IMG/VR virus record: IMGVR_UViG_3300016472_000180
Location: 1,525 to 65,524 of that record
Direction: 5' to 3' (one strand)
Source: a virus
Taxonomy: Duplodnaviria; Caudoviricetes
DNA length: 64,000 nucleotides
Shown here: positions 2,844 to 37,400 of the stretch, piece after piece
Layout: every line of letters starts with the position of its first letter
Numbering within the stretch: the stretch's first letter is position 1
Made by a program: the position numbers and the translations under genes
Notes under the pieces: generated by a model
The model's database searches: none
What the model was told of the DNA's origin: nothing
What the model saw: only the letters and a program-made list of their open reading frames with translations

Positions 2844-4094
2844 TTAAGGAGCAGTCACTGCATACTCAGCACCAAAGCCAGAACCAGTACCAAAGATGCT
2901 GGCAAGCTCGGCTCGGGTGTCAATTTCTGCTGAAGTATCACCAGCGGCAACGCTGGTGGTACCAACCAAGATCTGGCACAACTCTGGACGAAGAACACCA
3001 GTTCCCTTGAGCATACTTGCTACGGTGAACTGAGTGTTACGACGAACGTCTTGGACGGTATCAACCTTCATACCCATCAGTGACAGACCCGCAACAGCAT
3101 CTGGTTGGAAAATCATACCAAAGATGTTAACGGAGTTGCACACAAGGTTGTACTTGGAGCCACCAATTTCATTTCCAGCAGTACTAAGATTAGTGCGCGG
3201 GATGTGGTTGGTCTTGAGAATCTTCACACCCATGTAATCAAGCGTATCTGTTAGTTGGTTCATACCAACCGACAGTGGCGCACCCAAACCATTTTCTCCA
3301 CCAAACATAGCTTGGTTAGAATAGTTGTTGGTTGCAGCCACAACACTGCTAGTACCCACAACACCAGAGCTTGTAATGGCATTGAATGGTGACCGTGGAA
3401 TACCCAAGGCACGAATGACTTGGAATACCTTTGGTGTAACCACACAATACACATTCTGACAAGGATAGTTGTTTTCTTGCATGAAAACAAGGTAGTCCTC
3501 AATCTTTTGGAGAATATTGAGGGCGGTTGCTTCAGTACAAGCACTGACGGCAACTCCAATAGCCGATGTTGATGTGTCAACAATTGCTGGGGCTGGGAAG
3601 TTATCAACACCCAAACCACGAGGATCACTGGTAAGTGGAGCAACAACACAAGCGGCAATGTATGCAGAGATAATCTGCTTGTCGCGTGTATTGGCTAATG
3701 TTAGACCAGCTTGGCGAGCCAGCTCAGAACGATAGTCCCACTGGGTAACCAAGAGATCAACATTATCAGTCTCAAAGTGAGCAGCCATTGGACGCTTGTC
3801 AAGATTGATCTTGAAGGTCGTGCTGCTAGAGTCACCACCTACCAACTCTTCACCCGCATCCCAAGCCGCTTGTAACGCCACAGTACCAGTCACAGGGAAC
3901 TCATAAGAGAAGCCACCCGAAATGGACTTGTGGGAAATAAGGTTTTCAAACACGTTGTATTGGTCGTATGCGTTAATGACCTCACCTGACCAAAGGGGGA
4001 GCCACAGCTTGTTTGCGCCTGCTGCACCACCTGAAGGTTCTGCGGTTAGACTTGTACGCATCACCAAGTCTGCTGCTGTTAAATTATCTGGCAT
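2844..4094 (-). CDS. Major capsid protein (T7 gp10-like)
   Basis: LWLPLWSGEVINAYD, ISGGFSYEFPVTG, YRSELARQAGLTLANTRDKQI, GTGVLRPE motifs. Confidence 0.95.
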   Translation of the reverse strand: MPDNLTAADLVMRTSLTAEPSGGAAGANKLWLPLWSGEVINAYDQYNVFENLISHKSISGGFSYEFPVTGTVALQAAWDAGEELVGGDSSSTTFKINLDKRPMAAHFETDNVDLLVTQWDYRSELARQAGLTLANTRDKQIISAYIAACVVAPLTSDPRGLGVDNFPAPAIVDTSTSAIGVAVSACTEATALNILQKIEDYLVFMQENNYPCQNVYCVVTPKVFQVIRALGIPRSPFNAITSSGVVGTSSVVAATNNYSNQAMFGGENGLGAPLSVGMNQLTDTLDYMGVKILKTNHIPRTNLSTAGNEIGGSKYNLVCNSVNIFGMIFQPDAVAGLSLMGMKVDTVQDVRRNTQFTVASMLKGTGVLRPELCQILVGTTSVAAGDTSAEIDTRAELASIFGTGSGFGAEYAVTAP

Positions 4095-4265: not shown

Positions 4266-5204
4266 TTAACTTGGAAGTTTGTTAAAGTCGGTTTTCATCA
4301 TCCGTGTTTCAACGTATCTACGGTACTTGGGATCTGTTCCAAAGGCTGGGTTGTTTCTTTCCATAGAGAATTCTCGTTTTGTTCTATATGGCATATCAGG
4401 ACTTTGGGTAGCAGATACCGAAACCTTTTTGGATACGGATTCAACCACGGGTTCTTTTAGTTTGTTGTTTGGATTCTTCTTTTGGTACATTGCGTGTAGA
4501 CCAAGCAATGCAATCTCCCAATTAGAAGATGCCAATGAACTGTTCATGCTGGCTTGTTCGGTTTCCGACAGATTTTTACTGGCCCACACAAACAGCTTGT
4601 TAAGATTTTCCTTGCCACCGATAATATCAGCTGCTTTAGTGTAAGCAACTTCGATCTTAGCTTTTTGACCTGACATATATTCTTCAATGACATAATCAGG
4701 TAGCTTAGTTTTTTCTTTAATAATTGTTTTAGTTTCATCACTTAGGGTACCATTCGTAGCGTATTCAACAGTCCAAGATTTCCAATCATCGGGATTAACA
4801 ACAGGATCAACCTTTGGTTGTTCTTCAACCTTAGGCTTATCTGGTATTCGTAGCACCTCTGGAATGCTGGGTACTGGGTCTTCTTTAACAACGGGTGTTA
4901 CAGGTGGTTCCTTATAGTCTGGGTTGTTGGCACCACCTTGTTCATACTTAGTCTTTAGGGCAGCAACTTCTTGTCTAGACTTGGTGTATTCTCGTTGAGC
5001 ATTCTTTAGAGAATCAAACCAAGACCCAGCATCCTTAAAATTCTCAGGGATCTTGCCACCTTGGTTTTTAACATAGGCTTCAAAAGCAATCTTTTCTTTT
5101 TGTAGCTGAACATCTTCTGGCAAATTAGTTATAGATTGTTCCGAGTTATTGACAACGTTTTCAGTTAAGTCGGTGTCAATGTCAGGAGTCTCATCACTTT
5201 GCAT
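4266..5204 (-). CDS. Capsid assembly scaffolding protein (gp9-like)
   Basis: KIPENFKDAGSW, IIGGKENLNKLFVWASKNLS and C-terminal NNPAFGTDPKYRRYVE; located upstream of capsid. Confidence 0.9.
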   Translation of the reverse strand: MQSDETPDIDTDLTENVVNNSEQSITNLPEDVQLQKEKIAFEAYVKNQGGKIPENFKDAGSWFDSLKNAQREYTKSRQEVAALKTKYEQGGANNPDYKEPPVTPVVKEDPVPSIPEVLRIPDKPKVEEQPKVDPVVNPDDWKSWTVEYATNGTLSDETKTIIKEKTKLPDYVIEEYMSGQKAKIEVAYTKAADIIGGKENLNKLFVWASKNLSETEQASMNSSLASSNWEIALLGLHAMYQKKNPNNKLKEPVVESVSKKVSVSATQSPDMPYRTKREFSMERNNPAFGTDPKYRRYVETRMMKTDFNKLPS

Positions 5205-5314: not shown

Positions 5315-5842
5315 TTAGTTAATACTGCAATAACCATAAATAAAGTTAGCATAATCAGCTGTTGCTGTGGCAGAAATAAAGTCAACCTCTAGATGAGAAC
5401 ACCCAAAGTTTGGAACAACAATTGATGCAGCTGACAGTGTGGCTGAGTTGTTGATTAATGTCTGGGCAGTAAGACCAGACGTTACGGTAATACCATGCAC
5501 AAACTTTAGTGCTGTAGAGTTAACGGTTATACCTGCAGTAGATTGAACCCCAGCAATAGACCCAGCAAATAAAAGGTTTGGAATATATACACCATAACCA
5601 TCTAGAAATGACCAACCAGTTACCCGAATACCAGCCGATGTGGTAAAGCTTGCCAGTAATGGGTTGATGATGACATGTGAATATGGTCCACTAGGGATTA
5701 CAATACCATTAGCATGGCTAGTGGGATTAACCATTGTGACATGGGCATCATATGCTGTTGTTGAGGCGATGTTTGTTGGGTTTGCAACCTTTACAGTTTC
5801 CTTGATCTGCTTTGGTTGCGACATTGTGTGTGTGTGAATCAT
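5315..5842 (-). CDS. Hypothetical protein, possibly virion-associated
   Basis: 175-aa ORF rich in Ala/Thr/Gly/Ser within the head module. Confidence 0.6.
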   Translation of the reverse strand: MIHTHTMSQPKQIKETVKVANPTNIASTTAYDAHVTMVNPTSHANGIVIPSGPYSHVIINPLLASFTTSAGIRVTGWSFLDGYGVYIPNLLFAGSIAGVQSTAGITVNSTALKFVHGITVTSGLTAQTLINNSATLSAASIVVPNFGCSHLEVDFISATATADYANFIYGYCSIN

Positions 5843-28399: not shown

Positions 28400-29238
28400 A
28401 ACTTGATAATAAACTTTGAGTCCTGTACCTTGCCCTTTGGGGACAATATAACTACGCTGCCCTTTGGATCCTTGAATCTTTCATCAGTTATATCTCCACT
28501 GATAACATTAAACTTGGTTTGCTTGGGGTCATTAGGAAACACACAATAACCACGGTTAAGAACATCTTCATAGTTAGAACACACAACGGACACATTCTTC
28601 TTCTCATTCAAGAACCGTAAACAATGGTCTAGGTTCCAACCTGAATAACTAAAGGTTAGGTGCAGTTGTGGATCTTGTTTCTTATTGCAAGGATTACCCA
28701 AGGAATCAACATCATCATTACGATTCACAGCATCCATTAGTTCAGGTCGCTTGGTATAATCATAGTTGATAGAACCAAAGGTATAGATAATGGGTGCTAT
28801 AGTAAACCAACTGACATCACTGATTACATTACTACGGAAAGCCCATTGACCCCAGCCATGCCTAGCGGTACATAATCCTAGTTCATAGAACAAGGTAGAA
28901 AAGAATACCTCGGGGTCTTGTGCAAGTAAGTGTGTCTTACGGATTCTAGCCTGTTGGACACAACTCATTTTACCACGACCTGATTTACCAAGGCAAGCCG
29001 ATTCACATTCCGCAGACCGTGATGGACACAACTGGTAACCACTAGATGCAGCGGGAGCCAATGATAATCCATAGGTTGGAATACTGGATTTGTTTAGTTT
29101 AGTATTACCATTGGGCGGAGTCAGTAACTTGAAGCCTAGGTGGAAACGCTTGCGATTTGTGTAACACTTGACGGCTTCATTATATCCTTGTCTAATAGTT
29201 TCTTCAGGTAGAGGTTGTGTAGTTGTTAGGTTCAACAT
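28396..29238 (-). CDS. GP88-like phage protein (Cys cluster)
   Basis: GNTKLNK, LSLAPA, CPSRSAECESACLGKSGRG, FRSNVISD, DYTK, LTFS, GDITDERF. Confidence 0.75.
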   Translation of the reverse strand: MLNLTTTQPLPEETIRQGYNEAVKCYTNRKRFHLGFKLLTPPNGNTKLNKSSIPTYGLSLAPAASSGYQLCPSRSAECESACLGKSGRGKMSCVQQARIRKTHLLAQDPEVFFSTLFYELGLCTARHGWGQWAFRSNVISDVSWFTIAPIIYTFGSINYDYTKRPELMDAVNRNDDVDSLGNPCNKKQDPQLHLTFSYSGWNLDHCLRFLNEKKNVSVVCSNYEDVLNRGYCVFPNDPKQTKFNVISGDITDERFKDPKGSVVILSPKGKVQDSKFIIKL

Positions 29239-29352
29239 TCTTTATCCATTTGAGTAGAGTTAGATACTTGTCTCTAGTTTCCTTATCTTGATAGTATTCA
29301 TACGCCAGTTTTACTGCTGCAACTAACAAGTCTTTTGTTTCTTTGTTGATAC

Positions 29353-29706
29353 TCACAGTTTTACCAGGCTCCCTTCATTGTTAGAGTAGAATATTTTATT
29401 AAAGATTTCGGTACACCACAACATACAAATAGGACACGGTTTAGATAACCCGATAAGACCATTAGCCTTGAACCTGTAGTTCACAAGCGTAAGATTCTTC
29501 AGACCCATATGCTGAACCTTGCGGTAAGCATCCAGTTCTGAATGCAAGTATGGAGTTCTATAGCCCATCCGTAATGCTTTGGGATGCATCTTTGTATGGT
29601 TAGTACCCCACGCCAACAGTTTATTTCTGCGGTATATCAAAGAGATATGCATACGATGCCGAGGAATATTAGTGGCTATTCTTTTTATTTCCTCTAGGTT
29701 CTGCAA
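29353..29706 (-). CDS. Zn-dependent deaminase fold protein (CMP/dCMP deaminase-like)
   Basis: LHSE ... SKPCPIC (HxE...PCxxC). Confidence 0.75.
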   Translation of the reverse strand: MQNLEEIKRIATNIPRHRMHISLIYRRNKLLAWGTNHTKMHPKALRMGYRTPYLHSELDAYRKVQHMGLKNLTLVNYRFKANGLIGLSKPCPICMLWCTEIFNKIFYSNNEGSLVKL

Positions 29707-29854
29707 GTTTCCTTACCTCATAGTTAGACTTATGAATCAACCATAGATTACGCCAAGTGTCTGCCTCTGATTTTGTTTTCCATACTGCGGGATTCTCTCT
29801 GTCTTCCATTAGCCATCCTTTATTTTTACCTGTTATAATATAGATACCATACAT
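29669..29854 (-). CDS. Hypothetical protein
   Basis: MYGIYIITGKNKGWL...; start placed downstream of tRNA-Ile. Confidence 0.5.
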   Translation of the reverse strand: MYGIYIITGKNKGWLMEDRENPAVWKTKSEADTWRNLWLIHKSNYEVRKLAEPRGNKKNSH

Positions 29855-29856
29855 AA

Positions 29857-29931
29857 TCGGGCTGGCGGGAATCGAACCCACATGAGCGCGCTTATAAGGC
29901 ACGACCTTTTACCAATATCAGGCACAGCCCA
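29857..29931 (-). tRNA. trnI: tRNA-Ile (anticodon UAU)
   Basis: TGGGCTG/CAGCCCG acceptor stem; CGTGC-CTTATAA-GCGCG anticodon arm; GTGGG-TTCGATT-CCCGC T arm. Confidence 0.82.
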
Positions 29932-29962
29932 ATACCCATAGAGTTTATCTATGGGTTTTACT

Positions 29963-30202
29963 TTAGTTATTCATATCATCTGTATCATCATTCATATTGA
30001 ACAGAAAATCAACATCGAACCACTCAAAGGAAGTCTGCAATAACTTCTGATAGTTACCGCTTGTTGCTTCCTGAAGATACTGATCAACTTCTGTATCTGA
30101 AAGACCCGCTCGACGGGCTGCATTCTTACATTTAGAAAGAATTTTCATAGCATTACCATCATATATAGTTACCTTGACATCAGGATACTTTGGGTCTTTC
30201 AT
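29963..30202 (-). CDS. Conserved phage hypothetical protein
   Basis: DGNAMKIL...AARRAG....YLQEATSGNYQKLLQ pattern. Confidence 0.65.
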   Translation of the reverse strand: MKDPKYPDVKVTIYDGNAMKILSKCKNAARRAGLSDTEVDQYLQEATSGNYQKLLQTSFEWFDVDFLFNMNDDTDDMNN

Positions 30203-30206
30203 GGTA

Positions 30207-30620
30207 TTATCCTTGCAATAAACCAGTGGTTTCTGAAAGATCAATATACTCCTTGTGTGTAGTATCGGGTGGGATATCTCTAATAACTTCATCCAAAAGA
30301 CCCGACTCTAGAATAAACCGAAGAAGTTCCTCTCGTGATAGATGCTCGTGGTTACAGAACTTGATACCAAGATACTCATATCCTTTCAGGATATCGTCCA
30401 ACAGTTCTTCTCTACAGGATTCAAATGAAACAGGAAAATCAATACCAAACTCTGAAAGCCTAGTGCGATCCGTTGTCCACGGTGCTTTCTCAAAATCATA
30501 ATGCATCATCCAGTAGTCATAGTCCTTATTGTCATTGTTGACAATCAAAGATTCAATCATAGCCCGACGATGCTGACGCTTGTTAGAGATAATAGATTCG
30601 ATTTGTTCATTACTGTGCAT
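30207..30620 (-). CDS. Hypothetical protein
   Basis: GIKFCNHEHLSREELL...LDE; acidic. Confidence 0.55.
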   Translation of the reverse strand: MHSNEQIESIISNKRQHRRAMIESLIVNNDNKDYDYWMMHYDFEKAPWTTDRTRLSEFGIDFPVSFESCREELLDDILKGYEYLGIKFCNHEHLSREELLRFILESGLLDEVIRDIPPDTTHKEYIDLSETTGLLQG

Positions 30621-30966
30621 TAGAAAGTTCCTGTGATAACTTTGTTGTGTTGCGATACATCCATTCCTTGGAGACAATAGTTTCGTACCAGTCTTGAATA
30701 CTTGGGATACGCCCCAAGTCTTCGATAACATGCTGTTCACCAATCAGTCTAACAGGGATTTCCTTACGATCACTGTTTACTAGAATAGAACCAAAGAACT
30801 TTTCAAGTTGAAAGATACCCATTGAATGGTGTCTCAATGCCCTATGTCTGAAGTCAGCATATGCAGATTTGCTTTCGTCAAACCATGCATGAATGCTAGT
30901 GTAATCGCTTGGACAGCCACCAAACTTTTTCACAGAAGATAATGCGTGATGGTATGGGTGGCTCAT
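30610..30966 (-). CDS. DUF6915-like protein
   Basis: MSHPYHHALSSVKKFGG..DY..IHAWFDESK...DFRHRALRHH..GIF...IGEQHVIEDLG.IPS..DW. Confidence 0.8.
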   Translation of the reverse strand: MSHPYHHALSSVKKFGGCPSDYTSIHAWFDESKSAYADFRHRALRHHSMGIFQLEKFFGSILVNSDRKEIPVRLIGEQHVIEDLGRIPSIQDWYETIVSKEWMYRNTTKLSQELSNAQ

Positions 30967-31289
30967 TAGAATGTTAGAATAATATGGTCGGTTTCGTAAG
31001 TAGTGATTACCATGTTGTTTATAATCTTGATATTGACCTCATCATTTGACAAGGTAATAAAGATTTCACCGTTGCTGCCTTCATTGATTTCCCAGCCTGC
31101 ATAATGATCACACAAGGTGGTATACATAAAATCACGCAAAGCCTCTGAAACATTCCATGGGACAACAGATTCCTTTGGGGTAAAATCAGGAGAATCCAGC
31201 ATACCCTCATCACCATATCCTGTATAACTCAAATAAACTTCAGTAACACCCAATGATCTCAACGCCGCAAAGATGTTTTCTTTTTCCAT
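30966..31289 (-). CDS. DUF6878-like protein
   Basis: LRSLGVTEVYLSYTGYGDEG ... AGWEINEGSNG. Confidence 0.65.
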   Translation of the reverse strand: MEKENIFAALRSLGVTEVYLSYTGYGDEGMLDSPDFTPKESVVPWNVSEALRDFMYTTLCDHYAGWEINEGSNGEIFITLSNDEVNIKIINNMVITTYETDHIILTF

Positions 31290-31403
31290 AGTTTCTCCAT
31301 TAGTAGTGCAAATACTAAAGTCAAACCAAGAACCAGTAAAGATACTGGGGTCAAGTCAATGAAACAGAGAATGATACACAATAGAAAGAACACTAGGGTT
31401 GTA

Positions 31404-31832
31404 TTAGTTTGTTTCATACAACTTTAGGAAAGATTCCTTTAGGGAACATGGCACAGATGGATCGTCAATCTCCCACTCTAAAGACTCAAGGGGTGAGGTA
31501 GAATCCCACATTCCAATGAAACCAATACCAGCTTCGGCATATTCCAACATGATATTCCCATCATACATATTTGCTAGGGAATCAAAGAAAGAAATAGGTG
31601 GACTCCATGCCGTAAGAAACTGTAAGGTAACAATATCCCCATCCTTGGAGATATCTATATCTTCGCAGGATACATCCCACTTTGTGTTCCACTTGTTACA
31701 ATGATCTTCTATAGAATCTTCTGCGGGAACATATTTAGAGAAAAACTCTCCATTACCAAGAGAAACATATTCATAAATCTCTTTGGCGATTTCACCAGAC
31801 AATGTAACTTTATTCATGCACCAGTTTGGCAT
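31404..31832 (-). CDS. DUF1281/YubB-like ferredoxin-fold protein
   Basis: MPNWCMN, WNTKWD, FLTAWSPP, YAEAG. Confidence 0.8.
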   Translation of the reverse strand: MPNWCMNKVTLSGEIAKEIYEYVSLGNGEFFSKYVPAEDSIEDHCNKWNTKWDVSCEDIDISKDGDIVTLQFLTAWSPPISFFDSLANMYDGNIMLEYAEAGIGFIGMWDSTSPLESLEWEIDDPSVPCSLKESFLKLYETN

Positions 31833-32104
31833 TAGATACTCCGAAAGATTTTTCCAAGATATGCAGAAACCATTCCTGCAAGGGCAAACAATAGACCAAG
31901 ACTGATCCAAGCGGCGGGTGGCATTACACCTTTATCATGATCATACAATCCCCACAGTGCAACAATAATCATACCAATAATAAAGACAAGACAAATAATA
32001 TCCCAGCCCACCCACCTGTTTGTATTAGACCTGAAATAAATCGCAATCGATGCACCACAAGCGATACACCAAGTAAACATAGCAATACCAAGAATCCAAG
32101 CCAT
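31832..32104 (-). CDS. Three-TM membrane protein
   Basis: Three hydrophobic segments; GGAGA RBS. Confidence 0.65.
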   Translation of the reverse strand: MAWILGIAMFTWCIACGASIAIYFRSNTNRWVGWDIICLVFIIGMIIVALWGLYDHDKGVMPPAAWISLGLLFALAGMVSAYLGKIFRSI

Positions 32105-32131
32105 ATGTTATCTCCATTATGATTCCTAACA

Positions 32132-32156
32132 ATACATATCCACCATGGATATGCAT
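32132..32156 (-). promoter_or_regulatory. ATGGT-loop hairpin, copy D
   Basis: ATGCATATCC-ATGGT-GGATATGTAT upstream of RBS. Confidence 0.75.
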
Positions 32157-32159
32157 GAA

Positions 32160-32530
32160 AGAAACAAGTACCCCTGTGCATACCCGTCGATATACACAGG
32201 ACGCACTATGCTTATTACTCTGTTTATACTCGCATAGTCGAGTAATCATCTTTCATATCAGGATATATTATCAGTAAGGTAAAGACAATCATAAAAACCT
32301 TATCAGCCATTTGTCCCCTAAATGGTCATACCATAGTGGAAGGACTATAAACCCACTACTACACCCTTGCGGGGCGTTTATTATTTAGGTTTGCATCGCC
32401 TAAACAATATCCTATTGCGGCTTACCGTTGCAACGGATCCGCCATAAAGATTGGATTGAAAGAAATACTAGGGATTTCTCCCTAGTATTCCATGGTGTGG
32501 TGTTTATAGATAACACCTAACTATCTTACG
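32160..32530 (-). ncRNA. Candidate structured non-coding RNA
   Basis: No credible ORF; consecutive stem-loops and two interleaved 7-bp helices. Confidence 0.5.
32458..32489 (-). terminator. Terminator-like hairpin, GAAA loop
   Basis: AATACTAGGGA-GAAA-TCCCTAGTATT + TCTTTC. Confidence 0.65.
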
Positions 32531-32539
32531 GAGATAAGA

Positions 32540-32725
32540 TTATTCCTCGAAATACTGGGACGATGGCAAGTTCAATGCCTTGTTGATAGCAATAACATTG
32601 TCTTCCACAGTCAACACCGCAGCGGTCAACGCTTGCCGCAGTTCAGCCACTTCAGACTTGAGATTATTCAGTTGTGTTTGTGTTGCATACAACATCTTTG
32701 CCAGTTCTTCCATACTGTTATTCAT
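32540..32725 (-). CDS. Small coiled-coil protein
   Basis: GGAGA RBS; 61 aa. Confidence 0.65.
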   Translation of the reverse strand: MNNSMEELAKMLYATQTQLNNLKSEVAELRQALTAAVLTVEDNVIAINKALNLPSSQYFEE

Positions 32726-32752
32726 TGTTTTTTCTCCATAAAAAACTCTGAA

Positions 32753-33100
32753 CTACATACTCACCATGAATATGTAAACTTCCAAACCAAGGTCTTGTGC
32801 TAGGGTAATCATGGACTTTGTTCCCCTAGATTGTCCATCCCAAATGGCGATAAGTGCATCGGCATTTTCCGCCATTTGTTTATTGCGGATATACCCTGCA
32901 CTCTTGCCATAAGTAGCCCATTGTGCAGGGTATGAATGGACTGGGATACCATTAGCAATAGACCATTGTTTGCCAAGTGTATCCACCCCACGCGCTTCAC
33001 CGCAAACAGTAGCGGTAATCTCAAATTTCGATTCCAGTATTGCAGACTCAACAATACTAGGGTCAACAATATCCCTAGATCCTGCAATGATTGTTCTCAT
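32753..33100 (-). CDS. SLOG family protein (YspA/DUF2493-like)
   Basis: MRTIIAGSR, VCGEARGVD, AGYIRNKQM, IAIWDGQSRGTKSMI. Confidence 0.88.
   Translation of the reverse strand: MRTIIAGSRDIVDPSIVESAILESKFEITATVCGEARGVDTLGKQWSIANGIPVHSYPAQWATYGKSAGYIRNKQMAENADALIAIWDGQSRGTKSMITLAQDLGLEVYIFMVSM
32754..32776 (-). promoter_or_regulatory. ATGGT-loop hairpin, copy C
   Basis: TACATATTC-ATGGT-GAGTATGTA then GTTCAGAG. Confidence 0.75.
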
Positions 33101-33129
33101 TCTGTTATCTCCATAAAGAACTCTGAACC

Positions 33130-33154
33130 ATACATACCCACCATAGGTATGTAT
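33130..33154 (-). promoter_or_regulatory. ATGGT-loop hairpin, copy B
   Basis: ATACATACCT-ATGGT-GGGTATGTAT then GGTTCAGAG. Confidence 0.75.
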
Positions 33155-33155
33155 T

Positions 33156-33187
33156 GAAAAGAATACTGGGGATTTCTCCCCAATATT
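33156..33187 (-). terminator. Terminator-like hairpin, GAAA loop
   Basis: AATATTGGGGA-GAAA-TCCCCAGTATT + CTTTTC. Confidence 0.65.
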
Positions 33188-33195
33188 CCAATGTG

Positions 33196-33453
33196 TTATC
33201 GGCAAGGTGTGCCGCATGGATAATACCCATGCAACTTGCCATAGGCTTCCCATGATTCTGCGAAAGCCATTGCTTCATCATAGGTCAATCCATCTTCATC
33301 CCGACCATCTTCAACTTCAATCCACATTTCACGCTCATTTTCTTCCGCAAGTTCCTCTTGCAGTTCCATTTGTTCAGCCACAGACAACTCCTCTGCGATC
33401 AACTCACAAAACCAACCAACATCAAACTCATTTGAAGAATCATACTCTTTCAT
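33196..33453 (-). CDS. Highly acidic early protein (85 aa)
   Basis: 25 D/E versus 5 K/R by hand count; GGAGA RBS. Confidence 0.7.
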   Translation of the reverse strand: MKEYDSSNEFDVGWFCELIAEELSVAEQMELQEELAEENEREMWIEVEDGRDEDGLTYDEAMAFAESWEAYGKLHGYYPCGTPCR

Positions 33454-33482
33454 TTTTTTCTCCGTACACAACACTCTGAACA

Positions 33483-33507
33483 ATACATATCCACCATAGA
33501 TATGTAT
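33483..33507 (-). promoter_or_regulatory. ATGGT-loop hairpin, copy A
   Basis: ATACATATCT-ATGGT-GGATATGTAT then TGTTCAGAG. Confidence 0.75.
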
Positions 33508-33533
33508 ATTTTTGCCCCGTGGCATCGACAATG

Positions 33534-33564
33534 GGGTACAATTGAGCCGCCCAATCGCCCCGAT
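33534..33564. repeat. 31-bp direct repeat, copy 1
   Basis: GGGTACAATTGAGCCGCCCAATCGCCCCGAT; 30/31 identical to 34093-34123. Confidence 0.9.
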
Positions 33565-33570
33565 TCCACC

Positions 33571-33618
33571 AAAAAAAGCAGGGGATATCGTGAGCATTAT
33601 ACTCACGATATCCCCCGC
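33571..33618 (-). terminator. Strong intrinsic terminator after the first early gene
   Basis: 17-bp stem GCGGGGGATATCGTGAG/CTCACGATATCCCCTGC + T7. Confidence 0.9.
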
Positions 33619-33628
33619 ATGACCCGTA

Positions 33629-34042
33629 TCAGTACGGGAGTCCGAACGCTCCCGTGAACGCCACCGATTCAGCAGTATTCTTGGGGCGATTCTTGGAGCC
33701 AAGTGGTCGCCCACGCTTGCGCCCGCCCAACCCCGCCTCCGCCTCACGCGCCACCGTGCGCTGGAGTGCCTGCGCCTGCGGAGGAGTGGCACGAGTAGGC
33801 TCCACCGTAGTGCGAATGCTGCCATCGCCCGTGAACGCGGGGGACTTGGTTCCTTCAACATATCGGGCATTATCAAACAATCCGACGCTCAACTTCACTT
33901 CATCGGAACAACCAGACTCCGCCCGCTCCCACAGAGTACGCAGATCCGCCTTCGTGAGCGTCACGGACACGCTGATACGAGGCCCATTTGCCACAGTGCC
34001 ATCATTCAGCCACGCTGCTGCCTTACCAACCTTCTTGAACAT
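33629..34042 (-). CDS. First early gene; AT-hook-containing protein
   Basis: AGGAG RBS, start MFKKVG; RKRGRPLGSKNRPK near the C-terminus. Confidence 0.7.
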   Translation of the reverse strand: MFKKVGKAAAWLNDGTVANGPRISVSVTLTKADLRTLWERAESGCSDEVKLSVGLFDNARYVEGTKSPAFTGDGSIRTTVEPTRATPPQAQALQRTVAREAEAGLGGRKRGRPLGSKNRPKNTAESVAFTGAFGLPY

Positions 34043-34092
34043 TATTATATCTCCTAAAGATGCGAAACAATCCCACGGCGGGACTGTCGCAA

Positions 34093-34123
34093 GGGTACGA
34101 TTGAGCCGCCCAATCGCCCCGAT
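34093..34123. repeat. 31-bp direct repeat, copy 2
   Basis: GGGTACGATTGAGCCGCCCAATCGCCCCGAT. Confidence 0.9.
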
Positions 34124-34129
34124 GCCTTG

Positions 34130-34470
34130 CTGCCACCGAAGGTGACCACCACCGACCCCCCCCCTTGTGTGCGCGTGCATGGGCGTGTGCATGGGTGCGC
34201 GGATCTCGCGCGGGGGGGCGCGGGGGGGTGCGTGCGCGGGACCACGGGAGTGGTACCCCCTTGTAAATTTTTGGTACCTAAGTCGATTTCTACGGGATAC
34301 CCAAGTCAATACATTTTATTATTGTTGTGTTGTTCTGACTTGGTTGACCGTAGAGAACCTTAGGTTAATCCCAAAGTACCTTAGGTTAACCATAGTAACC
34401 TTAGGTAAGAATAACCACAACAATCTTTAAACCTAAGTGATCTATGGTTAACCTAAGTAAACTACAGTAT
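34130..34470. other. Probable genome terminus / terminal repeat region
   Basis: Non-coding gap between the last virion gene and the first early gene; G/C runs, then an abrupt AT shift with CCTTAGG/ACCTAAGT short repeats. Confidence 0.65.
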
Positions 34471-34472
34471 CA

Positions 34473-34487
34473 TCTATAGCCCCAACT
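34473..34487 (-). promoter_or_regulatory. Putative phage promoter facing the genome end (phiOR-like position)
   Basis: AGTTGGGGCTATAGA overlapping the stop of the 4311-aa gene. Confidence 0.6.
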
Positions 34488-37400
34488 ATTGGGATCTACC
34501 TAATAACCTAGTTAACAAAGGTGAAACTCCCTTAAGATCAATCTCAGATTCTTGCTTTATATCAGTCTTAAAACCTGGGGGAACTATAGGTACCTGTAAT
34601 GCTTTCTCTTTGACATAGTTCCTGTTGGTTGGTTCTTTGGGTGTATATGTTTCCATGCCATCTTTACCCAAACCAGGTGCTGTAGAACTACGGGGGGCAG
34701 AACCTGTGGGTGCAGAACCAAGGGGTATACCACTACGAGAACCACGACCACTACGGGACCTAGATGAATATGGATTGGGTTGTGTTTGAATACCATCCAA
34801 GATCCATTGCAATGCATTGGTTTCATCAATGTTTGCCCGTTCCTCTATGATTCTAGCTGGGATCATCAGTGGTGACTTGTTAATGAAATGTCCTGGGACT
34901 GCTAGAAGTTTTTGACCTGGGCTGGTAGATGGGTCATCATCAAACATTGCTTGGGGTACTTGTATGACCTTCCTTAATAAACTGAGAGTTGAGTTAGCAC
35001 CCACTATAGGAGAACCACCAATACCTGTTGATACCAAGGATTGTACTAACTGGTTTGGATTACTGGTTCCACCTGTAAAGTTGTGGACTGTTCTGACGGC
35101 TGCTTCCAACAGTGGTGTAAATGATCCCACCATTGGCAATCTTGTGGCAACTCTGATGATCATGCTTTCTGGGTCTGATTCCAATTCATTTAACATGTCT
35201 TCAATTTCACGACCACTAGCCCATTCTCGGAACAATCCAATCAATGTTTCTAACACAGCATAGAATACCAGTGTGCCAATCAATAGATTTGTGGTACCAC
35301 GGTTTGGGGCATTCAACATAACATCATCATAGAAAGATGACATGTAAGATGTAATTGCAGCCAACACTTTACCTTGTTCGGATCCCTCAAGTACACCCAT
35401 TGACCTGTTTAAACCATAGGATGCTGTAACTGATCGCTTTCGGATTCTTCGTTCAATACCTTCTTGGAAATCAACAATTGCTTTTTGGTAAACCTCTGGG
35501 TTAATTGGCGGGTTTGTCATGTTCCCCAAGTCACGGTATGCCAAATGCAATTCTCTGAAATCAATAACACCATCTAGTGCGTTGGCGTGGTTTAATCCCC
35601 AACTGATTGCATCCAAGTTGGTAATGCTGTCTAGACCGCTGGTTACTGCGTAGATTGCGTCGAACTCACTGAGTCCAGCTTCCCTTGCCAATCTCTTGTA
35701 TAACTTGGTAAGCTGTCTTTCTGCTTTCTCTGATCTCTCACTGGCTTTCAGCAATCGTTCCATCTCAGCTCTTATTGTTGGTTCTTCTCGTAGCTCTAAG
35801 AACTTTCTTATCTTACCACTTCGGATCATCTTCAACAACTTACGGTAATGTCTTGCCTTGGCATAGTACCGTGTCAGGTTGGTGTTATCTGTAACACCAC
35901 CAAGCAATACTGCGGTTTGTCCAAGCTTGGCTAAATTATCCGCAACCAAACCTGAGATACCACCGCTGATATTGGGTGTTTCCCAAATAGCTTTATATGG
36001 TTTAGACAAGTCCATATCAAAGTTTGCATCAGCAATGCCTTCGTTAAGGTGGGTGGTGTGTTCTTGATGCCAATCTTCTATACTGGTTGCAAGATCATCA
36101 ATTTGGAATCTGTGGTGTGAATCTCCTCTGGTGAGAACATTCAACAAATTAGATACCAACCTAAAGATACCAACTGGAATACTGAGTCCACCAGTTCTTA
36201 TTGAACTCTTGATAAACTCACCAACAGCTTCTGGTGACTGGGCTACACCATAAGCAATACCACCAGCCATGTTAATTACACCACGCAAACTTTTTGCTGC
36301 GTTTCTTGTTTGTCTGCTGCCAATACCGCTTCTTGGTATTGATCCATTGTATTCCGCATATTGCCACATCAACCGAGACATACCATCATAGACATCTTGT
36401 TTATGAAACACTTTGTCTTCTGGTTTTATGCTGTCGAACTCATCAATGTACCTCAGGATTCTTTCTTCCATCATCATTAAAAACTGCTTTGGACGCAAGC
36501 CTGTTTGTCCTGCCAGCTTATCAATTGTTTCTTGGAACAACAAATCAAATACACGGTATCTTACAAAGTTTTGGTATGCTGCATGTAGATCTGTTCTTGC
36601 AAGTTCAAACAACTCTGGATTCCCAAGTATTTCTGCTGTTGAGAAGTTCCTGATGGTGCTTTGGTAATTCTCGTAATGGTTGGTGTCAATATCAGGTCTA
36701 TCGTTTCTTGTTCCAGCTATTGTGCGTGCGTGTCGTCCACGCTTGGCTTTGTAATCCAACAGATCCCGTATCTCAACTTCAACCAAGGACAAACCAGAGA
36801 ATTCTTTCTTCCACTTATCCAGGACATGCTCGGAACTACCTGAAACTGTTTTGTAATACCTGTCTAAATCCGCCTTGGAAAGATCTTCGATTGTCTCTGG
36901 CACTCTATAGACATTAATAACATCACCTTTCTTAATGGTAAAGTATTTCTTACCCTTTATGCCAAAGTATTTATCTAACCCCGTTGGTGATGTCACAGTC
37001 GTGACAAACAGCTTTTCCAGTGTTTCGTTATCCAGATAAGTTGCTTCTGTTTCTACAAACTTTCGATTCTTGGTATAAAATGTTTTGACATCTTCAATAT
37101 CCAAGATACCCATAACAATCAAGGTGTTGATATCTAACATATCATCATTCAACTTGGATTGTGTTCTGGTTTCAACCAAGCTTCGTACCAACTTGGCATA
37201 CTTTTGGTTATCCATTAGAATGTCATTCAGTTTCTGCACAACGATCTGTATTGGCAAATACTCATCTGCTGGGACATCTTCACCATTCTTATCAACAACT
37301 TCTCGCCACCCAGTCTTTCTCTCTAGGTCCAAGATTACTTTGTTAATATGAATCATCTCTTCTCGGTATTTATTTAAGACCGCAGCAATATCATCTGCAT

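Follow-up and report, generated by a model that had tools for sequence, protein, structure and literature searches.

What does a short hairpin do that recurs, with changing stems and an identical loop, directly upstream of early genes in a single phage genome? The question is raised by a stretch of DNA of 64,000 nucleotides, hereafter the window, which comprises 64,000 of the 65,524 bases of the IMG/VR virus record IMGVR_UViG_3300016472_000180 (Duplodnaviria; Caudoviricetes), a record with direct terminal repeats. Four such hairpins, A to D, lie on its minus strand, each with an ATGGT loop and each followed by a ribosome-binding site (RBS) and a small early gene. As read from sequence comparison, they are genuine and under selection, and they make up a strand-specific, RNA-type family with a very narrow distribution. 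We give an even chance to the reading that each hairpin is a portable structured 5′ leader, which would protect and insulate individually processed early mRNAs and whose loop is probably recognised by a factor.

Hairpins with a constant loop are linked to the ribosome-binding sites of four early genes

The initial annotation had placed four hairpins on the minus strand and given their arms, and reading the sequence confirmed all of them (Table 1). The stems are 10–11 bp long and the apical ATGGTG is constant. The pattern CATANNNATGGTGNNTATG matches the window exactly at four places, namely the minus-strand hairpins A–D; with up to two mismatches, 0.76 chance matches are expected in the window. 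A pattern search of the whole 65,524-bp genome yielded no additional copies. A covariance model, run on the window with its filters off, returned the four hairpins alone at 50–58 bits (the next best matches, at 23 bits or less, were their own reverse strands) and detected no degenerate copies. The ViennaRNA minimum free energy (MFE) folds of five units each contained the hairpin, predicted as an 11-bp stem closed by a UGG triloop, and showed no consistent lower stem; hairpin B together with its upstream hairpin reached a z of −5.1 in the RNA MFE fold. Rfam, searched in gathering mode over the whole window, matched tRNAs and a Pistol ribozyme only, with nothing on the hairpins, and the sole hairpin-overlapping match in an E-value-mode scan of 29000–36000 was STnc400 (33151–33234), at 27 bits versus a gathering score of 80.

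Downstream of the hairpins, the leaders share one architecture, namely the hairpin, GTTCAGAG, a spacer of ~10 nt, GGAGA and ATG. GTT stands directly 3′ of each window hairpin. The motif that three copies had been said to share is GTTCAGAG, which follows hairpins A, B and C, and GTTAGGAA is found in D. An RBS and a start codon had been annotated within ~30 nt of every copy; in the four window units, the distance from the hairpin end to the GGAGA Shine-Dalgarno (SD) sequence is indeed 16–19 nt and that to the ATG 27–29 nt. The entire 58-nt unit from hairpin to ATG forms a repeat family (D1), in which units A, B and C are 64–78% identical. The leader is portable, being placed before otherwise unrelated small early genes. 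Hairpin C even overlaps the 3′ end of gene B, lying within its last eight codons and stop: the 5′ arm codes for VYIF, which aligns to the conserved C-terminal VYVI of a homologue, and the gene B protein continues for four residues past VYIF, through the loop and the 3′ arm. Since an RNA element tolerates an overlap with a coding end, this position is compatible with one.

Stem changes are compensated and wobbles fall on the coding strand

According to the initial annotation, the stems stay paired through compensatory and G-T/U changes around a constant loop. Among six distinct copies, 58 of the 60 stem cells pair (96.7%), 8 of the 10 stem pairs vary and 6 of the 10 are changed on both sides, while ATGGT and the next G are constant in all six. 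This covariation is far above shuffled controls: the six-copy values were matched by 0–1 of 500 column shuffles, and pairing fell to 23–68% when the partner columns were slid by 1–3. In the version with five sequences (the four window copies plus one from a relative), all 50 stem cells pair and five pairs carry two-sided changes, values matched by 1 of 500 shuffles.

Five copies were counted on both strands. The coding strand gives 44 Watson-Crick pairs, six G·T(U) pairs and no mismatches; on the complementary strand, the same five copies have six A·C mismatches, at least one per copy. A sixth copy, in locus L226 of a relative, adds a seventh T·G. If the strand were random, all six imperfections would fall on one strand with a probability of ~0.016, or ~0.03 if the T·G shared by A and B is taken as one event. 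These strand-biased wobbles, G·T(U) on the coding strand in 6/6 cases and A·C on the other, indicate that the element is single-stranded and on the coding strand, which agrees with the annotated preference for a single-stranded structure over a double-stranded DNA (dsDNA) operator. They support RNA as its form, the non-template DNA strand being less plausible.

The hairpin forms the second half of an intergenic cassette

Judging by the junctions, the intergenic cassette is composite and the hairpin makes up its second half; the first half is a GAAA hairpin in unit B and in L123, a relative's locus, or a Pistol self-cleaving ribozyme in unit D. A terminator had been annotated upstream of A, B and D; a strong one is present ~70 nt upstream of A, a terminator-like GAAA-loop hairpin ends 5 nt upstream of B, and D does not simply follow a terminator, as the Pistol ribozyme lies directly upstream there. 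The GAAA-loop hairpin and the pyrimidine-rich linker that follows it (…AGTATTCTTTTCA) in unit B and L123 make up a 47-nt repeat family (D3). Variants of this repeat precede many early genes across the clade of relatives, without the ATGGT hairpin.

The Pistol ribozyme is full-length, with P1, the conserved AUAAA linker, the GU cleavage dinucleotide and a score above the gathering score; its outer helix was left unaligned by cmscan, and a GAGU/ACUU pairing is possible by eye. It ends 13 nt before hairpin D, and cleavage is predicted, from the GU dinucleotide of the model, at G32171^U32170, 14 nt before the hairpin. The linker after the ribozyme, ACTTGTTTCTTTC, resembles that after the GAAA hairpin of unit B, TTCTTTTCA. 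The ribozyme fills in unit D the slot of the terminator-like hairpin of unit B, and this supports the earlier idea that transcripts are processed here. A Pistol homologue (39.8 bits) is present at 3584–3647 of L128, the locus of a relative with 77% RNA polymerase (RNAP) identity, again in the non-coding early region; the non-coding stretch that holds the ribozyme is ~380 nt long in the window and ~900 nt in L128. The ribozyme also gives the candidate non-coding RNA region 32160–32530 a partial identity. Trans-cleavage by the Pistol at the other units was rejected by inspection, the linkers before A–C being unable to pair with its substrate-binding strands.

The junction after gene C differs between lineages. 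In the window, the second GAAA-loop hairpin is followed by the decayed remnant of a hairpin (ATCTTTATGGCGGATCC) and by ~300 nt of non-coding DNA, after which come the ribozyme, hairpin D and gene D. In L123, an intact ATGGT hairpin takes the place of the remnant directly 3′ of the same GAAA-loop hairpin, but it precedes a DUF1281_C gene, and that lineage has neither the ribozyme region nor gene D. From this difference, the cassettes also appear to mark sites of gene gain and loss.

Table 1 Features of the early region and selected genes of the window
Feature	Position	Strand	Description
4311-aa open reading frame (ORF)	47421-34486	minus	after the 1380-aa lysozyme-domain protein
First early ORF	34042-33629	minus	137 aa, GC-rich, own SD and strong terminator
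Strong intrinsic terminator	33578..33618	minus	19-bp stem, T7 run; ends the GC-rich first ORF, ~70 nt before hairpin A
Hairpin A	33483..33507 (5′ arm 33507-33498, loop 33497-33493, 3′ arm 33492-33483)	minus	ATACATATCT-ATGGT-GGATATGTAT; 58.1 bits
Rest of leader A	33451..33482	minus	TGTTCAGAG, spacer, GGAGA SD, gene A ATG
Gene A	33196..33453	minus	85 aa, very acidic
GAAA-tetraloop terminator-like hairpin	33160..33189	minus	then TTCTTTTCA linker; 5 nt before hairpin B
Hairpin B	33130..33154 (5′ arm 33154-33145, loop 33144-33140, 3′ arm 33139-33130)	minus	ATACATACCT-ATGGT-GGGTATGTAT; 58.1 bits
Rest of leader B	33098..33129	minus	GGTTCAGAG, spacer, GGAGA, gene B ATG
Gene B	32753..33100	minus	115 aa, YAcAr/SLOG-like (PHROG 'GTP-binding domain')
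Hairpin C	32753..32777 (5′ arm 32777-32768, loop 32767-32763, 3′ arm 32762-32753)	minus	TTACATATTC-ATGGT-GAGTATGTAG; 50.3 bits
Rest of leader C	32723..32752	minus	GTTCAGAG, spacer, GGAGA, gene C ATG
Gene C	32540..32725	minus	61 aa, coiled-coil-like
Second GAAA-loop hairpin	32462..32491	minus	after gene C; then decayed hairpin remnant ATCTTTATGGCGGATCC
Pistol self-cleaving ribozyme	32170..32243	minus	Rfam RF02679, 46 bits versus gathering 34.5, model positions 1-68
Hairpin D	32132..32156 (5′ arm 32156-32147, loop 32146-32142, 3′ arm 32141-32132)	minus	ATGCATATCC-ATGGT-GGATATGTAT; 54.9 bits
Rest of leader D	32102..32131	minus	TGTTAGGAATCA, GGAGA, gene D ATG; repeat families D2, D9
Gene D	31832..32104	minus	90 aa, hydrophobic
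Single-subunit RNA polymerase	23223-20746	minus	

The family is confined to close relatives

Metagenomic relatives of the phage form a large clade, with RNAP identities from 93% down to ~47% and many members on 55–70 kb contigs. The sister lineage, at 93% RNAP identity, has three further hairpin copies, and its orthologous hairpins stand before different genes. Besides the L123 copy, L226 and L227 hold two copies with the stem ATGTATC/GATACAT, of which one stands between a strong terminator, ~60 nt upstream, and an 80-aa gene, and the other precedes a membrane ORF that starts with GTG. GT is found 3′ of the stem in every copy and GTT in 6/7; the distance from hairpin to start is 30–37 nt in the relatives. 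The near-identical genomes L120–L122 added no variation. A covariance-model search of relatives' contigs, proposed with the initial annotation, covered 88 loci (1.4 Mb) and gave a match in L123 alone.

Wider scans gave isolated matches only. With a loose pattern, IMG/VR yielded single chance matches, and none with the GTTCAGAG tail; the pattern ACATAYYYATGGTGRRTATGT, searched in 185,579 species genomes and in metagenomes, returned 4 + 4 isolated, unrelated palindromes and no wider family. Searches with single proteins (the C-terminus of the giant 4311-aa protein and a DUF932 protein) found no relatives. Mimics of the repeats of clustered regularly interspaced short palindromic repeat (CRISPR) arrays, namely Racr or solitary repeat units, were taken as a comparison class (PMC10651486); the exact-pattern scan of the 185,579 species genomes contained no CRISPR-array-like occurrences, a scan that diverged repeats would escape.

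Other structured elements occur in the early regions of the clade. A hairpin with the same stem and another loop (CATACC/CATACT) lies beside tRNA genes in L128 and L137, and its score is at chance level. L128 (3000–3040 and 4105–4145) and L137 (1921, 2070 and 2238) contain long palindromes, TATCCCATAGGYTACAC-TRTAGWG-GTGTACCCTATGGGATA, with a conserved pyrimidine-pyrimidine mismatch, which follow GGATACC-type hairpins and precede early ATGs by ~45 nt. Their loop and position are similar to those of the window hairpins, but homology to the latter could not be established, and they were not counted as family members because they carry the clade-wide GGGTATCC and an SP6-promoter-like core. This core, TAGGTTACACTATAG, is identical at 14 of 15 positions to the SP6 promoter. 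L196, at 44% RNAP identity, has a repeated leader of its own (5040–5115 and 5500–5575), composed of a G·U-rich hairpin (GGTTGTCACGGT…), a conserved spacer and GAAGGAGAGGTGTGACATG, which suggests that structured leader modules recur in the clade with unrelated sequences. Within 3.7 kb of L126 (560–4200), an early region largely free of ORFs, there are fifteen coding-strand GGTATCC motifs; the region adjoins a small gene with a Cas_VVA1548 (Csx16-like) Pfam match. Several short ENA contigs of the sister lineage (L223, L226, L227) start or end with GTTTCCCAGTCACGATA, which looks like leftover random-amplification primer, so that these ends would not be biological.

A structured 5′ leader could mark processed early messages

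Among the roles proposed with the initial annotation, a binding site for a regulator and the processing or re-start of transcripts are possible. In the portable-leader reading, transcripts of the early region would be ended or cut between the genes; in unit B this would happen at the GAAA-loop hairpin with its pyrimidine-rich linker, in unit D at the Pistol ribozyme, and the downstream message would then start a few to ~14 nt before the hairpin. A stable hairpin near the 5′ end, 16–19 nt before the SD, may shield the message from 5′-end-dependent decay, and the same hairpin may keep upstream sequence from pairing with the RBS. The loop could be read by a trans factor, either a phage or host RNA-binding protein or a nuclease, that treats the early messages as one group. 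The stem need only pair whereas the apical AUGGUG is constant, and for this reason the loop is probably contacted by such a factor. That the hairpin protects and insulates, and that a factor binds its loop, is our inference.

Several points weigh against this reading. The family is small, with four plus at least three copies in two close lineages and none in 86 other relatives' loci, so that the invariance of the loop rests on few independent events. Strong terminators precede the first copy in both lineages and the stretch from terminator to hairpin is not conserved between the two, which leaves the ATGGT hairpin as the only conserved element that could restart transcription and favours a promoter-like role. 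No sigma-70-like promoter that would supply a read-through transcript was found in the region, where the host's promoter type may differ. In addition, the predicted 14-nt single-stranded 5′ tail of D exceeds what classical protective 5′ hairpins allow, and none of the early genes was recognised as coding for a candidate RNA-binding protein.

The phage RNAP promoter and the giant virion protein

The single-subunit RNAP of the phage, 825 aa long, is only ~27% identical to that of any cultured phage. A motif with a T7-like CTATAG core, AGTTGGGGCTAWAGA, is found on the minus strand at 34479, 19510 and 12160 and, in weaker form, at 29563. Dozens of relatives (loci L123–L211), down to ~60% RNAP identity, conserve the motif at equivalent boundaries between genes and on the coding strand alone; it is very likely the promoter of the clade's single-subunit RNAP. 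The hairpins have only CTAT.G in common with AGTTGGGGCTAWAGA and were rejected as the canonical promoter of this enzyme. A sigma-70 promoter in or around the hairpins was also rejected, as no register gave consistent −35/−10 hexamers across the copies, a result that covers sigma-70 alone, which may not be the host's type.

The 4311-aa protein has no Pfam, PHROG or PDB-sequence match, and its profile shows no similarity to the phage's RNAP family. Neither a homologue of the same length that shares words with it nor a match in a GenBank phage was found. Protein-atlas features in its N-terminal half point to polyvalent-protein domains (ART-PolyVal, LPD). In relatives only the C-terminal ~1300–1800 aa are conserved (43% and 27% identity), and the C-terminal ~1200 aa are the conserved core of ~40 giant proteins. 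An AlphaFold model of residues 3000–4199 (predicted local distance difference test, pLDDT, 71.6) had as its best match the PhiM1 ejectosome protein (8vb2_A), with Z 7.8 and 293 residues (next row 5.5), a modest value for a helical protein. Foldseek of this model against the PDB gave no match at E ≤ 0.001; N4 gp50 appeared at E 1.5. On the modelled fold, the conserved C-terminal part looks like a T7-type ejectosome protein.

Promoters, operators and recombination modules as alternatives

The initial annotation had named N4-like hairpin promoters as one candidate. Worked out for the window, the inverted repeat would be extruded from supercoiled DNA and read neither by host sigma-70 holoenzyme nor through the usual promoter recognition of the phage, but by an injected, unrecognised N4-style enzyme or by a second mode of the phage RNAP, and each early gene would be restarted after the preceding terminator. 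We consider this unlikely, for all that the layout recommends it. The hairpin occupies the position that the promoter has in terminator/promoter cassettes such as the promoter-early stem-loops (PeSLs) of T4 (PMC4122927). Copies A and B, the L123 copy and the first L227 copy are all 3′ of terminator-like hairpins; from the strong terminator to the first copy, the hairpin alone is conserved between the two lineages; and a scan of the hairpin strand found no sigma-70-type promoter. The hairpins lie among the first early genes, 1–2.4 kb past the end of the last late gene and the terminal-repeat-like region and ~9–10 kb upstream of the RNAP gene, so their positions are those of N4-type elements, at the entering genome end and upstream of early genes, and a giant virion protein gene lies directly upstream of the early region. 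The GT(T) after the stem is ~12–13 nt from the loop centre, close to the ~11 nt at which N4 transcription starts. The structure itself speaks otherwise. The 6/6 wobbles favour a hairpin on the non-template strand, and all five counted template-strand hairpins carry A·C, whereas the N4 virion RNAP uses a template-strand hairpin; moreover, the stems have 10–11 rather than 5–7 bp. Pfam, PHROGs, a PDB sequence search and a profile comparison revealed no RNAP domain in the 4311-aa protein, and the C-terminal core of that protein best fits the T7-like ejectosome protein. The promoter of the phage RNAP is very likely a different conserved motif, and copy C is intragenic, with no preceding terminator, where a restart would be unneeded.

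Less likely again is a translational or decay operator comparable to coat-protein or RegA-type operators, at which a protein or endoribonuclease that binds the AUGGUG loop would switch the early messages together, with no intrinsic protection by the hairpin. Such an operator would suit an apical loop that stays constant while the stems covary and an element confined to the first few early genes at a fixed SD distance; the loop UAUGGUG also resembles the SD context UAUGGAG of units B, C and D, and one factor might read both. However, the hairpin ends 16–19 nt before the SD, where a bound protein would not obviously occlude the ribosome, no RNA-binding candidate was recognised among the early proteins, few independent copies stand behind the loop invariance, and the context of ribozyme and terminator is left unexplained. 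It is very unlikely that the hairpin is a by-product of recombination modules, in which terminator-plus-leader cassettes persist mainly since they allow early genes to be gained, lost or exchanged by homologous recombination. The cassette-like repeats (the 47-nt terminator family and the 58-nt leader family), the orthologous hairpins before different genes and the junction after gene C, with remnant, ribozyme and D in the window and one hairpin without gene D in L123, would all be accounted for. Neutral repeats, by contrast, would not retain pairing through six two-sided changes and G·U-compatible one-sided changes, nor would they fix a loop or overwrite a coding end; recombination and function are, besides, not mutually exclusive. 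The AT-rich inverted repeats upstream of genes, together with an AT-hook-like RKRGRPLGSKNRPKN in the first early ORF, might recall a palindromic dsDNA operator, with two 9-bp half-sites 7 bp apart bound by a dimeric protein such as the AT-hook protein of that ORF. This we regard as highly improbable: half-site changes are compensated on the other arm far above chance, every imperfect pair is a G·T on the same strand, the central ATGGT, itself asymmetric, keeps a single orientation, and the genome and metagenome scans gave nothing but isolated, unrelated palindromes.

A more speculative reading, which we also rate as rather improbable, takes the UGG-centred AUGGUG loop as the address tag of a dedicated, unrecognised system. 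This could have either of two forms, a phage or host factor that collectively stabilises, silences or cuts the first-entering messages, or a new kind of hairpin-dependent transcription start, in which the non-template strand is read by an injected enzyme that is concealed in the three quarters of the 4311-aa virion protein outside the modelled part. Several other ideas were discarded: TGGTGG as a Chi site of the E. coli type (misoriented for the near end, and needing no hairpin), attC sites (hairpins too short and without R''/L'' boxes), mimicry of an anticodon loop or T-loop (no U33, no TΨC), a kissing interaction with the ACCATGG that precedes terminator 2 (which unit B does not conserve) and pairing with the 16S 3′ end (4 nt only).

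Genome layout around the early region

By gene order the genome layout is T7-like. The large genes are all on the minus strand, and in its reading order the late part comprises tail spikes, the large terminase, small internal proteins, a 1380-aa protein with a terminal lysozyme domain and the 4311-aa ORF. Downstream of the latter there is a repeat-rich non-coding stretch and then ~11 kb of small genes with three tRNAs. The RNAP is followed, in order, by primase-helicase, DNA polymerase, exonuclease, ribonucleotide reductase, portal, scaffold and capsid. Gene A has no family match.

The AT-hook-like motif RKRGRPLGSKNRPKN of the first early ORF was noticed by reading the sequence. A 34-nt direct repeat, 94% identical (33534–33567 and 34093–34126), brackets this ORF like an inserted cassette. 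Past the giant gene, the region 34480–34150 on the minus strand, with counterparts in L128 (1400–1990), L126 (250–800) and L211 (7090–7866), holds an array of ACCTAAGGT/ACTTAGGT repeats. The array gives way to a block that three lineages conserve, AAATCGACTTAGG N4 CAAARATTT N3 AGGGG N TAC, and then by a very GC-rich tract with poly-G/poly-C. The contig of one relative starts inside the conserved block, just past TCGACTTAGGGG. The region of the array and the block is probably the genome terminus or an early control region.

Discussion

One parallel to the proposed leaders is given by the early RNase III sites of coliphage T7 (R0.3, R0.5, R1, R1.1 and R1.3), which are likewise repeated RNA hairpins between the first early genes and whose presumed role, to yield stable single-gene messages from a long early transcript, would be shared by the window hairpins. 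The T7 sites are irregular helices of at least ~20 bp with an internal loop at the cut. The window hairpins instead have a perfect 10–11 bp helix, about half the required length, with no internal loop and with a conserved apical loop, so that the earlier proposal of a T7-type RNase III site does not fit; in one window unit, cutting is assigned to a self-cleaving ribozyme, as predicted. The boxB hairpins of lambda-type nut sites are also short RNA hairpins of early transcripts with a conserved pentaloop and variable stems. A boxB combines a 5-bp stem with a GNRA-like loop, is partnered by a boxA, and occurs once per operon, upstream of terminators; here there are four copies downstream of terminators and no boxA.

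The order of parts in unit D, with ribozyme, short linker, stable hairpin, spacer and SD, is that of RiboJ, a synthetic insulator engineered from a hammerhead-type satellite ribozyme in which the ribozyme is followed by a hairpin upstream of the RBS. The protecting and insulating role proposed here for the leaders would follow the logic of RiboJ as well. Unit D differs in having a natural Pistol, and three of the four window units have a terminator-like hairpin or a coding end instead. Perreault et al. reportedly described, in 2011, clustered self-cleaving ribozymes between phage and prophage genes. These also punctuate the intergenic gaps of early operons, and are hammerheads, often in many copies; the window has a single Pistol, and what is repeated there is a non-catalytic hairpin.

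The hairpin promoters of the N4 virion RNAP share with the window elements the presence of several short, small-loop hairpins at the entering end of a podophage genome, before early genes and by a giant virion gene. In N4 the stems measure 5–7 bp and the loops 3 nt, the hairpin is read on the template strand, and gp50 contains a T7-like RNAP domain (PMC4496689; PMC13434306), whereas here the stems have 10–11 bp, the wobbles favour the non-template strand and no polymerase domain was found. The PeSL cassettes of T4-type phages are likewise composite intergenic repeats, a stem-loop terminator followed by an expression signal, which flank variable small early genes, and both they and the window cassettes are apparently tied to gene gain and loss (PMC2839356, PMC4122927). 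In PeSLs a sigma-70 early promoter comes after the stem-loop, and a role in gene exchange by homologous recombination has been proposed (PMC4122927). The window cassettes contain the terminator part, and their second part is a covarying hairpin with an SD; a sigma-70 consensus was not found. The hairpins are best seen as a variant of the structured-leader and intercistronic-cassette theme of phage early regions, made more interesting by the Pistol ribozyme beside one of them.

For the processing of early mRNA by host RNase III, T7-like phages are the textbook example. The divergent clade studied here, with genomes of 60–70 kb and hundreds of metagenomic relatives, seems to handle early-mRNA processing by other means, in that a short covarying hairpin is joined to the ribosome-binding region and combined with an upstream terminator-like GAAA hairpin or Pistol ribozyme. 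If this is true, unit D would be a natural counterpart of the synthetic ribozyme-plus-hairpin insulators, Pistol ribozymes would gain a concrete, testable job in making the 5′ end of an early message, and the 58-nt leader could serve as a portable expression part. If the hairpins are promoters instead, they would extend hairpin promoters beyond the N4 group for the first time; and if the loop is an address tag or the hairpin a start site for an injected enzyme, either would amount to a regulatory principle new to T7-like phages, in an aquatic clade that is large and uncultured.

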